From the sequence record PV611058: a stretch of DNA of 64,000 bases, one strand, 5' to 3'. Position 1 is the stretch's first letter. Each line of letters starts with the position of its first letter. Positions 15,473 to 17,292 of the stretch are shown piece after piece. The stretch is from Escherichia phage WPEC3. The notes under the pieces are model-generated. The model did no database searches. It saw only the letters and a program-made list of their open reading frames with translations, and was not told the DNA's origin. The position numbers and the translations under genes are program-made.

Positions 15473-15781
15473 CTATAGCAAGTCGTTTTCCATATCGTCA
15501 AGAACAGAATCAACGATGTTCGCTGCTATCTTCTTAGGCATCTTGAACCACTCGGTGTTAGGTTGCCTTACTGCGTTCATTTGTTTTAGTCTTTTGTGAA
15601 TTTCTTTCTCTGCTAAACGTGCATCTTCAAAGTGTACTTCATGGTATACCACAAAATCTCTAAAAGGTGTAGCAGTTTGATATGTCCTTAAACGTTCTGT
15701 CATTTCAGATTTACTGGTAAATCCTATCTTAACATAATCAGGCCATGCATCATTTACTATAACATAACATATCTGTGACAT
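15473..15781 (-). CDS. T5orf172/GIY-YIG-like domain protein
   Basis: YVIVNDAWPDYVKIGFT motif; ATG with GGAGA RBS. Confidence 0.5.
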   Translation of the reverse strand: MSQICYVIVNDAWPDYVKIGFTSKSEMTERLRTYQTATPFRDFVVYHEVHFEDARLAEKEIHKRLKQMNAVRQPNTEWFKMPKKIAANIVDSVLDDMENDLL

Positions 15782-15820
15782 ATAAAATATCTCCATCAGT
15801 AATATGAAGATATTTATTAA

Positions 15821-16180
15821 TCAAGTAATTCGGAAATTTACACCTGCATCAATTAGGCGTTGGAATGGGTTTTGTGGCTCGAATTCAGAAGGAGTTTTTG
15901 AAATGTTCAGTACTGGAGCATCAGCATGTAACTTTGACATACGTTCTTTGTACTTATCTAAGTATTCTTCATATAACATATCTTCAGTGTTACTATCAAG
16001 TATGTCTTCAATAAATGAATCAATACTATAGTCCAGTCTATCATCATTATAATACAAAGTTTCACTAGCTTCATCATAACCAACTAAAGTTCCGTATGGA
16101 ACATTAATCTCAATTTTTGAGTACTGACTCTTTAAGTACTCTTCTTTCTTAAAAATGTATACAGTTAACATCCGTGTCAA
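15821..16180 (-). CDS. hypothetical protein (119 aa)
   Basis: ORF. Confidence 0.45.
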   Translation of the reverse strand: MTRMLTVYIFKKEEYLKSQYSKIEINVPYGTLVGYDEASETLYYNDDRLDYSIDSFIEDILDSNTEDMLYEEYLDKYKERMSKLHADAPVLNISKTPSEFEPQNPFQRLIDAGVNFRIT

Positions 16181-16194
16181 CTCCTTATGGTTGT

Positions 16195-17292
16195 TTACTT
16201 AAAAGTATTTACAATTTCTAAAACACTTTCAAGATACTTAGCATCAAAAGTTTCAGTAAATCCTGATGGCAACTCTTCAGTACTTACCACACCACTTTCA
16301 ATGTATTTCTTTATGAACTTTTCCAACAGTAATGGTTGATTGCCATCTTCAAAGTAGCGTTCTATAAGTACTTCATGCTCGAACTCAGAATTGCGGCTTT
16401 GTTCGTTGACACGGCGTTTCATATCACCAGTGATCCCATATTTGTACACCGTCTTGTTATTGTTAGTTAGTTTTTGTACATAGAAATATCCAGGTTTTGA
16501 TGGTTGGTATCCATATTCACCACATGATGGACATCCTTTACCAGCCATATGTGCTTTTGGTTGTTGGGAGAAAACACCATGCATCGGACATACAATATCA
16601 ACATAATTCTCGCTTATAGTATAATTAACCAAGCTATAATCATACTTATGGTTATGGATAGGAGACACCAGTTCAATGAAACGTTCCGTACTTCTTCCAC
16701 CTTTACCAGAGCATGTACCACAGCCAGTTTTACCGACGATTAGAGTTTTTGGATCTACCGTCCAGTCATGATGTCCTTTTGTGCAATGAACCGTTACTTT
16801 AGTTTTCTGATTGACATAAACAGTATTCGTCAAGTCCAATGCATCACCATAGTTTTCTTTTACTTTTGCAGTGAATGATTCAGTACTATATGCTTCATTT
16901 TTATTACATACGGGGCATCCTTTACCAGAAAGAAATTTATTTGGTGTGATTTCAAAGTAATTGTTGTGCTCTTTATCAGTGCAGAACAGTGTTACTTTTG
17001 TTATAGCGTTAGTGTAATTTAGTTTATCAAATTTGAATTTATCTTTTCCAAATTTAGTTTCTACAGTACTGATGAATGTGTCGTTGTTTGAACGTTGTGA
17101 CATGTTTGAATAACATGATGCACATGTACATGCAATGTGACGAAGTGCAGGTTTGGTGTTTTCTTTTCCACACTTGTTGCATTTCACTGTTGTCTTACTT
17201 GCCTTGAATACTAAAGTACTGAAGTCAAATTCTCCATACTTAGCAGTCATTTGGTTAATAAACTCTTCTTTGTTGATACTTACGTTTGGCAT
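16195..17292 (-). CDS. zinc-ribbon repeat protein with C-terminal T5orf172/GIY-YIG-like domain (homing-endonuclease-like)
   Basis: Four repeated units of the type C..HG......GKGCPxC and a C-terminal YFYVQ...VYKYGITGD motif. Confidence 0.55.
   Translation of the reverse strand: MPNVSINKEEFINQMTAKYGEFDFSTLVFKASKTTVKCNKCGKENTKPALRHIACTCASCYSNMSQRSNNDTFISTVETKFGKDKFKFDKLNYTNAITKVTLFCTDKEHNNYFEITPNKFLSGKGCPVCNKNEAYSTESFTAKVKENYGDALDLTNTVYVNQKTKVTVHCTKGHHDWTVDPKTLIVGKTGCGTCSGKGGRSTERFIELVSPIHNHKYDYSLVNYTISENYVDIVCPMHGVFSQQPKAHMAGKGCPSCGEYGYQPSKPGYFYVQKLTNNNKTVYKYGITGDMKRRVNEQSRNSEFEHEVLIERYFEDGNQPLLLEKFIKKYIESGVVSTEELPSGFTETFDAKYLESVLEIVNTFK

Follow-up and report, generated by a model that had tools for sequence, protein, structure and literature searches.

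A putative T5orf172-family homing endonuclease cassette beside the major capsid gene of an Asteriusvirus-like jumbo coliphage

The window analyzed here, a 64,000-nt stretch of Escherichia phage WPEC3 (PV611058), comes from an Asteriusvirus-like jumbo coliphage, and the gene directly downstream of its major capsid gene (ORF-A) is probably a free-standing homing endonuclease gene of the T5orf172 branch of the GIY-YIG superfamily, borne on a cassette of ∼1.2 kb. Comparison with related phages suggests that this cassette has recently moved between them and that, of the three genes in the capsid-to-tail-fiber interval, ORF-A alone behaves as a mobile element.

All genes of the locus lie on the minus strand. 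The upstream neighbor is the major capsid protein gene of the T4 gp23 family (17437-18612; Pfam Gp23, 9.5e-90; phrog_138, 6e-98), which is annotated as “major capsid protein” in all relatives and is followed by an intrinsic terminator (17374-17393, minus strand; 8-bp stem with 5 GC pairs, and a T-run). ORF-A (365 aa, 16195-17292), ORF-B (116 aa, 15821-16171), and ORF-C (102 aa, 15473-15781, a T5orf172 domain alone) follow in this order, and the downstream neighbor is a tail-fiber gene (13803-15431; phrog_13229, 1.4e-246). An earlier note had described two nuclease-like genes between a capsid gene and a tail-fiber gene at 15473-17292; the flanking genes, the position, and the T5orf172-type character of both nuclease-like genes were borne out, but a third gene, ORF-B, sits between them. 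No tRNA genes were found in the 64-kb window, and searches of the window for paralogs of ORF-A and ORF-C by phmmer and with HMMs of both families returned self-matches only. The locus is not discussed in the genome papers on CBB and fEgEco12.

The ORF-A protein

ORF-A comprises four tandem zinc-ribbon modules (16507-17277, minus strand; aa 6-66, 68-133, 135-199, and 200-262) and a C-terminal T5orf172/GIY-YIG-like nuclease domain (16198-16497, minus strand; aa 266-365). The four zinc ribbons were recovered by regular expression as repeats of ∼63 aa, each a helix followed by a beta-hairpin with the ligand set CxxC or Cx3-4H ... CxxC, and all 14 Cys residues of the protein fall inside aa 1-262. 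In a self-alignment of the repeats, F, V-x-x-C, P, and CxxC were invariant, and the AF2 model (mean pLDDT 85.3) contained four equivalent helix and hairpin modules, all carrying the four-ligand Cys/His pattern. The stricter motif previously assigned to all four repeats, C..HG......GKGCPxC, is matched exactly by repeat 4 and only loosely by repeats 1-3. The modules are presumably treble-clef, DNA-binding ribbons of the CapR/DUF723/DUF4379 type, arranged as “beads on a string,” and they are shuffled between alleles, as in Turkey3, E9.1, and the type II phages.

The family assignment draws on profile matches to ORF-A and its homologs. ORF-A itself matched phrog_681, “endonuclease,” at 2.6e-77, whereas its matches to DUF4379 (4e-5), CapR (2.6e-4), and DUF723 (2e-3) each fell just under the Pfam cut-off, the zinc-finger models scoring 24.2 bits against a cut-off of 24.5, 21.6 against 24.2, and 18.4 against 20.9. 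In total, 961 homologs were obtained, many of which combine DUF4379, DUF723, or CapR with T5orf172/MUG113; among the 35 that are full-length, DUF4379 was matched by 29 (best 3e-15), T5orf172/MUG113 by 19 (best 5.3e-5 and 6.5e-6), DUF723 by 16, and CapR by 11. The HMM search suggested in the earlier note supported ORF-C directly, with T5orf172 at 50.6 bits against a cut-off of 20 (3e-13, profile positions 2-99 of 101) and MUG113 at 48.7 bits against 22.3 (1.1e-12); ORF-A, in contrast, reached 18.8 bits against T5orf172 (PF10544), below the cut-off and covering profile positions 1-45 only. NCBIfam gave no match to ORF-A, ORF-B, or ORF-C, and PDB sequence searches gave no usable match, whether the query was ORF-B or the family profile of ORF-A or ORF-C. 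ORF-C also matched phrog_681 (3.8e-6), but the two family profiles aligned only weakly with each other (hhalign E 0.02, probability 2.4%), and the two genes are accordingly not claimed to be close paralogs or derived one from the other.

The predicted folds of both the ORF-A nuclease domain and ORF-C are GIY-YIG-like, alpha/beta with a three-stranded sheet flanked by helices, so that the lack of such a fold, named in the earlier note as evidence against its reading, did not materialize. The Tyr of motif 1, the Arg, and the Glu metal ligand of GIY-YIG nucleases, and in ORF-C also the Asn, are present by sequence motif, the catalytic residues of both proteins having been assigned by motif order and spacing rather than by structural superposition. 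In ORF-A, the conserved positions are Y271, K284-x-G286, R293/R294, and E347, with Y271, R294, and E347 invariant in 35 of 35 family sequences. The second Tyr (“YIG”) is replaced by Lys in ORF-A (K-Y-G) and ORF-C (K-I-G), matching the T5orf172 consensus. The dN/dS of ORF-A (0.07-0.25) indicates purifying selection.

Slot occupancy and the mosaic capsid gene

The cassette (16172-17373, minus strand) consists of a promoter, ORF-A, and a new ribosome-binding site for ORF-B, and exactly fills a slot bounded on the left by the capsid terminator, which is kept across the aligned Asteriusvirus phages whether the slot is empty or occupied, and on the right by the ORF-B start codon. The predicted sigma-70 promoter (17325-17353, minus strand; TTGACA-17-TATAAT, 12/12 consensus match) ends about 33 nt before the ORF-A start codon and falls within the segment missing from empty-site phages; in the alignment, the run present only in the window spans 16205-17357. 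The 3′ junction, AAGGAGTTGACAcGG-ATG, is common to the slot alleles. The short spacer of empty-site phages was also compared with the 5′ untranslated region of the cassette, since homology between the two would mean that insertion took place precisely at the ATG of ORF-B; the local alignments scored 12-13.

In collinear relatives, ORF-A is thus present or absent at one precise site. The slot is empty in fEgEco12, PBECO4, TH47, CMSTMSU, the SD-series Salmonella phages, and CBB, and occupied in at least 25 records, where the alleles include the 365-aa type I gene of the window, a ∼305-aa type II gene, a 332-aa type III gene (T5orf172, 1.3e-5), a 532-aa gene with DUF7487 and a REase-like region (ph0011), and a 408-aa homolog (RaK2); at least four nuclease genes other than ORF-A occur there in related phages. 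The synteny comparison proposed in the earlier note therefore did yield relatives without ORF-A, but none of the cassette-less relatives examined lacks ORF-B or ORF-C. RaK2/K64-1, Munch, and EJP2 carry homologs of ORF-A (32-67% identity) in this slot, and since such divergent genes share it, the pattern could largely reflect ancient residence with sporadic loss.

Comparison with two related phages shows the window to be an fEgEco12-like backbone carrying a JP4-like cassette and capsid tract. The window differs from fEgEco12 by 0-3 mismatches per 100 nt across 12.8-20.4 kb, except at about 16180-17700, whereas it reaches the same similarity to JP4 only between 16200 and 17600, that is, over the cassette and the last ∼170 nt of the capsid gene and nothing else. 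The cassette stretch is 99.2% identical to JP4, which elsewhere is 5-50% diverged. The tract diverging from fEgEco12 reaches to about 17700, and the 17500-17699 bins account for 27 of the 68 mismatches counted over 9 kb, none altering the protein.

The same part of the capsid gene is linked to the type I cassette across phages. In Fisher tests on 21 phages, which ignore shared ancestry, the only capsid sites associated with type I at p < 1e-3 (183 variable sites) were nt 1080 (9/9 vs 0/12, p 3.4e-6), 1101, 1107, 1116, and 1119; the smallest p was 0.0075 in capsid nt 1-1000, and 0.09 among 146 variable sites of ORF-B and 119 of ORF-C, where no association was seen. These sites define a core silent-substitution tract at 17494-17533 (minus strand; capsid-gene nt 1080-1119), in which all changes are synonymous. 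Type I carriers have three capsid-gene backbones, differing by 51-71 of 900 nt, but the last 100 nt of the gene show 0-4 mismatches among them, except in SP27, which has type I without the nt 1101-1119 haplotype.

A silent tract linked to type I on three backbones, together with the two-parent mosaic, is the pattern expected of co-conversion and is compatible with homing without being proof of it; ordinary homologous recombination would also link an indel to its nearest flank, and the tract alone therefore does not prove nuclease-initiated transfer. The tract may hold the recognition or cleavage site, or else mark where co-converted donor DNA ends. Because CBB, a distant phage with an empty slot, shares the ACC-AGT part of the “type I” haplotype, the tract is not purely an immunity signature. 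More broadly, parts of the haplotype occur in the distant lineages CBB, JNE01, and EJP2, which fits import from a donor; de novo “immunizing” mutation was rejected as the sole reading on these grounds.

Resident genes ORF-B and ORF-C

ORF-B and ORF-C are old, fixed residents of the Rak2-like clade that lie outside the mobile unit, given that both are single-copy, syntenic, and under purifying selection. Virtually all Asteriusvirus, Mimasvirus, and Munch-like phages have the two genes at this position, and every cassette-less relative examined, including CBB and GAP32, keeps both in place; their haplotypes track the genomic backbone and not the cassette type.

ORF-B is an acidic protein (pI 4.4) without Cys that matched phrog_15724 (1.2e-52) and had no match in Pfam, NCBIfam, PADLOC, or PDB. 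It was found in 66 phage records, one copy each and all Rak2-like, with 50% identity to its RaK2 ortholog and a dN/dS of 0.1-0.2.

ORF-C, listed as an ORF of 107 aa (15473-15796), most likely starts at the ATG at 15781, giving 102 aa, as indicated by a GGAG 9 nt before this codon and by the N-terminal MSQICYV that almost all homologs share. Its motifs are intact (Y11, K23-I24-G25, R35, E82-W83, and N93 in the numbering of the 107-aa ORF), and Y11, R35, E82, and N93 are invariant in 26 sequences. The orthologous group is tight (63-98% identity, 25 clusters, one fixed position in the jumbo-phage clade), with 69% identity between the window and CBB and a dN/dS of 0.04-0.06. The earlier note had held that conserved core genes with a non-nuclease function would count against its reading; conserved residency does hold for ORF-B and ORF-C, and ORF-C still has an intact nuclease motif. 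PADLOC returned domain-level matches only for ORF-C (PDC-S57 and PD-Lambda-1), which are not taken to indicate a defense role.

ORF-C resembles stand-alone T5orf172 proteins such as phage T5 orf172 and those of T5-like relatives, which are ∼100 aa and consist of the domain alone: it is 31-44% identical to short proteins encoded in the tRNA region of T5-like phages, and about a quarter of the 150 best profile matches were ≤120 aa. Unlike these proteins, it is fixed beside a polymorphic homing endonuclease slot in a jumbo-phage clade. ORF-C is most likely either a minimal GIY-YIG-type nuclease that is still active and serves the phage or the remnant of an endonuclease that became fixed long ago. 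The more specific proposal that it is domesticated and catalytically intact, without a DNA-binding domain of its own, and serves a phage function, possibly with ORF-B, is an unlikely one; as candidate roles, it could process recombination or packaging intermediates, break down DNA of the host or of competitors, or police the adjacent slot. If it were true, a fixed nuclease module would lie at the capsid-tail junction together with a multi-allelic arena of rival cassettes, and the replacement of one cassette by another would drive silent mosaicism of the capsid gene.

Mode of spread, alternatives, and known systems

If ORF-A is a homing endonuclease gene, the consensus sigma-70 promoter of the cassette would drive its expression, the four zinc-ribbon modules would read an extended DNA site, and the T5orf172 domain would cut nearby, as expected from knowledge of the family. 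During co-infection, the cut would hit a cassette-less or differently occupied allele of a related phage, probably in or beside the last ∼100 nt of the capsid gene, and recombinational repair from the cassette-bearing genome would copy the cassette with a short 3′ stretch of the donor capsid gene; the mosaic resulting from this step is observed, and ORF-A would have made the initiating cut. Only silent differences travel along with the cassette, because the capsid protein is strongly constrained.

There is a small but appreciable chance that ORF-A is instead an old Rak2-like accessory gene, lost or swapped by ordinary homologous recombination, with the nuclease uninvolved in its own spread; it could then be inactive for homing, or serve the phage. 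The 32-67% identical homologs in the slot of RaK2/K64-1, Munch, and EJP2 fit such a history, as do the capsid 3′ ends, which are identical between fEgEco12 (empty) and WPEC5 (type II) and between PBECO4 (empty) and SHEFM2K (type III) despite their differing occupancy, as expected of simple deletion or insertion without co-conversion, and the conserved terminator and shared 3′ junction could act as homology arms. However, the slot is filled by nuclease genes alone, at least four of them unrelated or mosaic, the type I cassette has crossed three backbones accompanied by a short tract that is confined to the capsid-gene side, and ORF-A is under purifying selection with invariant catalytic residues, all of which are hallmarks of active phage homing endonuclease genes (PMC10448857).

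It is very unlikely that ORF-A has been domesticated, as a CapR-like regulator of the late (capsid/tail) region or an Odn-like weapon against satellites or competing phages, and is not selfish: fEgEco12, 99% identical in the flanks, is without it, unrelated nucleases replace it in other isolates, a gene that controls an essential operon would not be expected to be lost or exchanged in this way, and the intact nuclease motif speaks against a pure repressor. Both kinds of domestication are documented for the T5orf172 family (PMC8096241, PMC8263062), and the CapR-homology matches (2.6e-4; 11/35 homologs), the site beside the capsid gene, the predicted strong promoter of its own, and purifying selection would agree with such a role. 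That the whole of 15473-17292 is a single inserted island, in which ORF-B and ORF-C came with ORF-A, is extremely improbable, although the 1.8 kb do contain two T5orf172-type genes and have a GC content (31-37%) below that of the capsid gene; low GC is the norm for this genome and the capsid gene is the outlier, and the synteny of ORF-B and ORF-C in cassette-less relatives, their backbone-linked haplotypes, and the conservation of ORF-C refute it. The mobile nuclease insertion claimed in the earlier note is supported for ORF-A (optional slot, allele swaps, and capsid tract), whereas ORF-B and ORF-C are fixed residents.

The homing endonuclease reading of ORF-A invites comparison with T4, where, as the earlier note stated, segD lies directly downstream of gene 23. 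Both SegD and ORF-A are encoded by free-standing GIY-YIG-superfamily genes directly downstream of a gp23-type capsid gene, but they share no detectable sequence similarity (E 1.1); SegD has an N-terminal SegE_GIY-YIG nuclease and a C-terminal HTH, whereas ORF-A begins with its zinc ribbons and ends with the T5orf172 domain, in which, unlike in SegD, Lys replaces the second Tyr. Furthermore, segD is antisense to gene 23, whereas ORF-A is co-directional with the capsid gene. Because ORF-A is unrelated to SegD, reversed in domain order, and co-directional rather than antisense, independent colonization of the equivalent position, as had been proposed, is a fair reading for ORF-A. SegF and SegG are established to spread by cutting a relative's copy of the neighboring gene, whereupon flanking markers are co-converted, and the same mode would be expected of ORF-A.

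The closest precedents are the putative T5orf172 homing endonucleases described from phages including vibriophage ICP1 (Barth, Dunham & Seed 2023; PMC10448857), which have repeated CapR/DUF723/DUF4379 fingers, a capsid gene in 31% of neighborhoods, and domain swapping. Like these, ORF-A has a C-terminal T5orf172 domain after several zinc-finger modules of these types, is free-standing beside an essential structural gene, shows module shuffling between alleles, and lies at a boundary of genetic exchange. The ICP1 “putative homing endonuclease” genes (tcgB) are 32% identical to ORF-A over aa 212-364, a low identity confined to the last ribbon and the nuclease domain. ORF-A differs in having four ribbons, in a slot shared with a non-T5orf172 nuclease (ph0011), and in being carried by Asteriusvirus jumbo coliphages, which are not among the enriched clades named there. 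Two other proteins share parts of ORF-A. Odn (ICP1 Gp88) has a catalytic domain of the same family, cuts DNA in vitro, and loses this activity upon mutation of the conserved Glu (PMC8263062), which is the sole direct biochemical evidence used here for DNA cutting by T5orf172 proteins and its need for Glu; however, Odn is an anti-satellite weapon with a RepA_N targeting domain, whereas ORF-A has zinc ribbons and a selfish-type presence/absence pattern. CapR of PLE, a capsid-operon repressor derived from homing endonuclease DNA-binding modules (PMC8096241), resembles ORF-A in zinc-finger module type (Pfam CapR, 2.6e-4, below the cut-off) but is satellite-encoded and without a nuclease domain, whereas ORF-A is phage-encoded and keeps one.

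The “different domain combination” highlighted in the earlier note is not new, both the architecture and the capsid-adjacent location of ORF-A being already described for T5orf172 homing endonucleases (PMC10448857), and knowledge of the family is unchanged. The cassette is a clean natural example of a homing-type T5orf172 cassette in jumbo coliphages; its slot has at least five alleles, and collections already include near-isogenic genomes in which the slot is occupied or empty (window/JP4-type vs fEgEco12). The target or the conversion boundary should lie in a 40-nt window of the capsid gene, which would make cleavage mapping and homing crosses straightforward. Several Asteriusvirus-like phages are in development for therapy, and differences at this locus would reflect turnover of selfish genes and not a change in capsid or host range.

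Gene neighborhood and resident genes

A sequence search with the 6-kb stretch around ORF-A (365 aa, zinc-ribbon and T5orf172 nuclease-type), ORF-B (116 aa) and ORF-C (a bare T5orf172 domain) matched 72 phage records. The top matches were Asteriusvirus jumbo coliphages (vB_Ec-M-J, 96.7% over 100%; fEgEco12, 99.0% over 80%), and weaker matches, in the capsid gene, came from the wider Rak2-like group, including CBB, GAP32, and RaK2. Every gene of this neighborhood lies on the minus strand, and the order of transcription is prohead protease (19885-20505), scaffold (18703-19818), gp23-family major capsid protein (17437-18612), ORF-A (16195-17292), ORF-B (15821-16171), ORF-C (15473-15781), and tail fiber (13803-15431), with a tail-fiber assembly protein, a 101-aa protein, and DNA polymerase following downstream. 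Just upstream of the protease gene, 20537-21382 (minus strand) encodes a 281-aa, extremely acidic, low-complexity protein with long Glu/Asp runs; the annotations of JP4, CBB, and RaK2 list its counterpart as a virion structural protein. The capsid gene has a GC content of 44-49% (17600-18400) vs. 31-39% in its neighbors, and its dS between the two main Asteriusvirus backbones (∼0.25-0.3) is 4-5 times below that of ORF-B and ORF-C (∼1.0-1.5); codon-usage constraint linked to high expression may explain these features, as may separate histories of the two segments.

The earlier note described a homing-endonuclease-like island of two genes between the capsid and tail fiber genes. Both nuclease-motif genes are present there, ORF-A with its ribbons and a T5orf172 match (18.8 bits; cut-off 20) in its C-terminal 100 residues, and ORF-C matching T5orf172 at 3e-13 across the whole domain; however, ORF-B was overlooked, making three genes in all. 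The probable start codon of ORF-B is the ATG at 16171, which follows AAGGAG, and not the TTG chosen by the ORF finder; that of ORF-C is probably the ATG at 15781 (102 aa), because GGAG lies 9 nt upstream and homologs begin MSQICYV.

ORF-B and ORF-C are residents. Each occurs as a single copy at the same position in all examined Asteriusvirus genomes, whether cassette-less or cassette-bearing, as well as in Munch, EJP2, CBB, and GAP32, so mobility applies to ORF-A and not to the island as a unit. ORF-C relatives at ≥60% identity were found in 62 phage records and ORF-B in 66, close to the number (72) sharing the capsid gene; RaK2 retains ORF-B (50% identity), and the position of ORF-C is taken there by a 244-aa gene unrelated to it. 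In comparisons with diverged relatives, dN/dS was 0.04-0.06 for ORF-C and mostly 0.10-0.23 for ORF-B (0.34 for Munch). ORF-B is acidic (pI 4.4), lacks cysteines, and had no match in Pfam, NCBIfam, PADLOC, or PDB. In ORF-C, the motif residues Y11, K23-I24-G25, R35, E82-W83, and N93 were invariant across 26 sequences, and a collection of 5.8 billion proteins yielded only 25 ORF-C clusters (63-98% identity, all ∼100 aa). An ORF-C profile recovered 1,873 cluster representatives at E ≤ 1e-3, with about one quarter of the best 150 being ≤120 aa as counted from their lengths, and T5-like phage genomes encode small proteins 31-44% identical to ORF-C. Since domain-only T5orf172 proteins are common, ORF-C is an ordinary member of this type that became fixed in the clade. 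Among PADLOC candidate defense proteins, ORF-C matched the N-terminal ∼90 residues of PDC-S57 (1.9e-15) and, weakly, PD-Lambda-1, indicating that bacterial candidate anti-phage systems also employ this minimal nuclease domain.

The slot downstream of the capsid gene and its alleles

Alignment revealed ∼1.15-1.2 kb in the window without counterpart in fEgEco12 and PBECO4. The slot that holds this DNA begins just past the conserved capsid-gene terminator (17393-17374) and ends at the ORF-B ATG; the cassette filling it (16172-17373) comprises a sigma-70 promoter (17353-17325, 12/12 consensus), ORF-A, and a replacement ribosome-binding site for ORF-B. Searches with the cassette or its border matched 37 records, which were sorted by extent of match. 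Thirteen contained the full gene of the ORF-A kind (type I), 12 of them at 84-99% nucleotide identity and EJP2 at 68%; 12 matched over the 3′ half only, and those examined carried a ∼305-aa allele with three ribbons (type II); and 12 matched at the terminator only. Within this last group, the slot was truly empty in PBECO4, fEgEco12, TH47, and CMSTMSU, whereas SHEFM2K and JNE01 had an unrelated gene there, encoding 332 aa with three ribbons and T5orf172 (1.3e-5; type III). Also in this group, the ph0011 slot (locus L013, 3685-5283) encodes a 532-aa protein with a single zinc ribbon, a DUF7487 match (1.2e-13), and a weak REase_MTES_1575/Vsr-like match (0.0076); it probably represents a different class of free-standing nuclease that competes for the site. 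In RaK2 and K64-1, the slot contained a 408-aa four-ribbon homolog of ORF-A (32% identity); CBB had no ORF-A homolog in the slot.

The slot alleles are modular mosaics: Turkey3 combines type I ribbons 1-3 with an Ecwhy_1-type fourth ribbon and nuclease domain, and E9.1 combines type II N-terminal ribbons with a different third ribbon and a window-type nuclease domain. A shared ∼20-nt junction, AAGGAGTTGACA(C/A)GG, ends type I, II, and III cassettes directly before the ORF-B ATG (window 16172-16194; loci L001, L002, L005, L012, and L014), including type III despite its unrelated coding sequence, whereas the spacer before ORF-B differs in empty-site phages. This junction may be a shared homology arm through which cassettes are replaced, or may be no more than the ribosome-binding site of ORF-B.

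ORF-A contains four ∼63-aa repeats in residues 1-262 (mutual identity 23-25%), each with a leading helix bearing an invariant Phe, followed by a V-x-x-C strand, a Pro, and, at its end, CxxC. All 14 cysteines of the protein fall within these residues, which form a basic region (pI 8.7). The Pfam models DUF4379, CapR, and DUF723 each fell slightly under cut-off for ORF-A itself, and were found in 29, 11, and 16, respectively, of its 35 full-length homologs, 19 of which matched T5orf172 and MUG113; PHROG 681 ("endonuclease") matched ORF-A at 2.6e-77. Residues Y271, K284-x-G286, R294, and E347 were invariant across 35 sequences, and the second Tyr of the classical YIG motif is Lys in both ORF-A and ORF-C, as is typical of T5orf172. 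These invariant residues and the confident AlphaFold models built from homolog alignments (mean pLDDT 85.3 for ORF-A and 82.5 for ORF-C) gave no ground for rejecting a GIY-YIG-like fold. The dN/dS of ORF-A against diverged relatives was 0.07-0.25, and that of the capsid gene against Asteriusvirus relatives was 0.02-0.04.

Linkage between the cassette and the capsid gene

The window differed from fEgEco12 at 68 positions over 9 kb, 27 of which lay in the bins covering 17500-17699 (the final ∼260 nt of the capsid gene), and all 27 left the protein unchanged. JP4 encodes an identical ORF-A protein in a cassette 99.2% identical to that of the window, with 0-3 mismatches per 100 nt only at 16200-17600 and 5-50% divergence elsewhere in 12.8-20.4 kb. 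The window is a two-parent mosaic, an fEgEco12-like backbone with a JP4-like cassette and capsid 3′ tract, because near-identity to JP4 is confined to 16200-17600 and that to fEgEco12 lies outside the cassette and tract. Separately, 13300-14300 (the 3′ part of the tail-fiber gene and the tail-fiber assembly gene) is nearly identical to fEgEco12 and 25-50% diverged from JP4, far above its flanks, and looks like a swapped host-range module; WPEC5 has one 1710-nt tail-fiber gene and no separate assembly gene annotated.

Association was assessed in a panel of 21 phages, of which nine carried a type I cassette, six type II, two type III, and one type IV, and the other three had an empty slot. CMSTMSU was left out; its capsid gene is broken up into several short ORFs (325-1500 of its locus; a read-out at fixed coordinates lost register and contained 5 stops), likely by sequencing or assembly indels, as the record is flagged UNVERIFIED_ORG. 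The nine type I carriers represent three capsid backbones, with 51-71 differences in the first 900 nt, but share the last 100 capsid nt with 0-4 mismatches, SP27 excepted. Among the 183 capsid positions that varied, only nt 1080, 1101, 1107, 1116, and 1119 were associated with type I at p < 1e-3 in tests that ignore shared ancestry; three of the five passed Bonferroni correction, and the nt 1080 allele occurred in 9/9 type I phages vs. 0/12 others. Within capsid nt 1-1000 the smallest p was 0.0075, and no site in ORF-B (146 variable) or ORF-C (119) was associated (smallest p 0.09). The linked block reads GAT AGC ACC AGT TCA CTA GGT in type I phages vs. GAT AGT ACT TCT TCT CTT GGT in most others, both translating to D-S-T-S-S-L-G.

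Linkage that is short and limited to the capsid-gene side is what co-conversion in intronless homing should produce. On this evidence, a target is best sought in the final ∼100 nt of the capsid gene, with a 40-nt region as candidate target or conversion edge. Any indel is, however, expected to show linkage to its nearest flank, and distant phages, among them CBB with its empty site, share the ACC AGT part of the type I haplotype. SP27 is an exception to the linkage, with a type I cassette and the type I allele at nt 1080 but a non-type-I haplotype at nt 1101-1119, which sits between the two and looks like a small internal conversion patch. Two pairs with empty-site twins, WPEC5 (type II)/fEgEco12 and SHEFM2K (type III)/PBECO4, have identical capsid ends, so simple gain or loss without co-conversion also happens. 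Plain recombinational turnover of an accessory gene nevertheless seems an improbable explanation for ORF-A, and we infer that it quite likely acts as a homing gene.

Relation to known homing endonucleases

Among T5orf172 homing endonucleases, 87% carry CapR, DUF723, or DUF4397/4379 zinc fingers, often several as "beads on a string"; a capsid gene occurs in 31% of T5orf172 gene neighborhoods, and these genes swap modules between alleles and mark boundaries of genetic exchange (Barth, Dunham and Seed, PMC10448857). Nuclease activity of the domain, requiring a conserved Glu, was shown for Odn/Gp88 (PMC8263062). ORF-A agrees with the T5orf172 homing endonucleases in every respect testable here, and its element appears to belong to this already described kind. 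The earlier note correctly placed T4 segD immediately downstream of gene 23; however, SegD and ORF-A are unrelated in sequence (E 1.1), have opposite domain orders, and are transcribed in opposite senses relative to the capsid gene, so that the parallel is one of convergence in position and does not reflect homology. In the genome papers on CBB and fEgEco12, the slot locus is not mentioned as a homing site. The proposed mobile nuclease thus holds for ORF-A as an optional cassette, to which the present analysis adds exact slot borders, the set of alleles that occupy the slot, a clear mosaic of two parental genomes, and a 40-nt stretch as candidate for the target or the edge of conversion.
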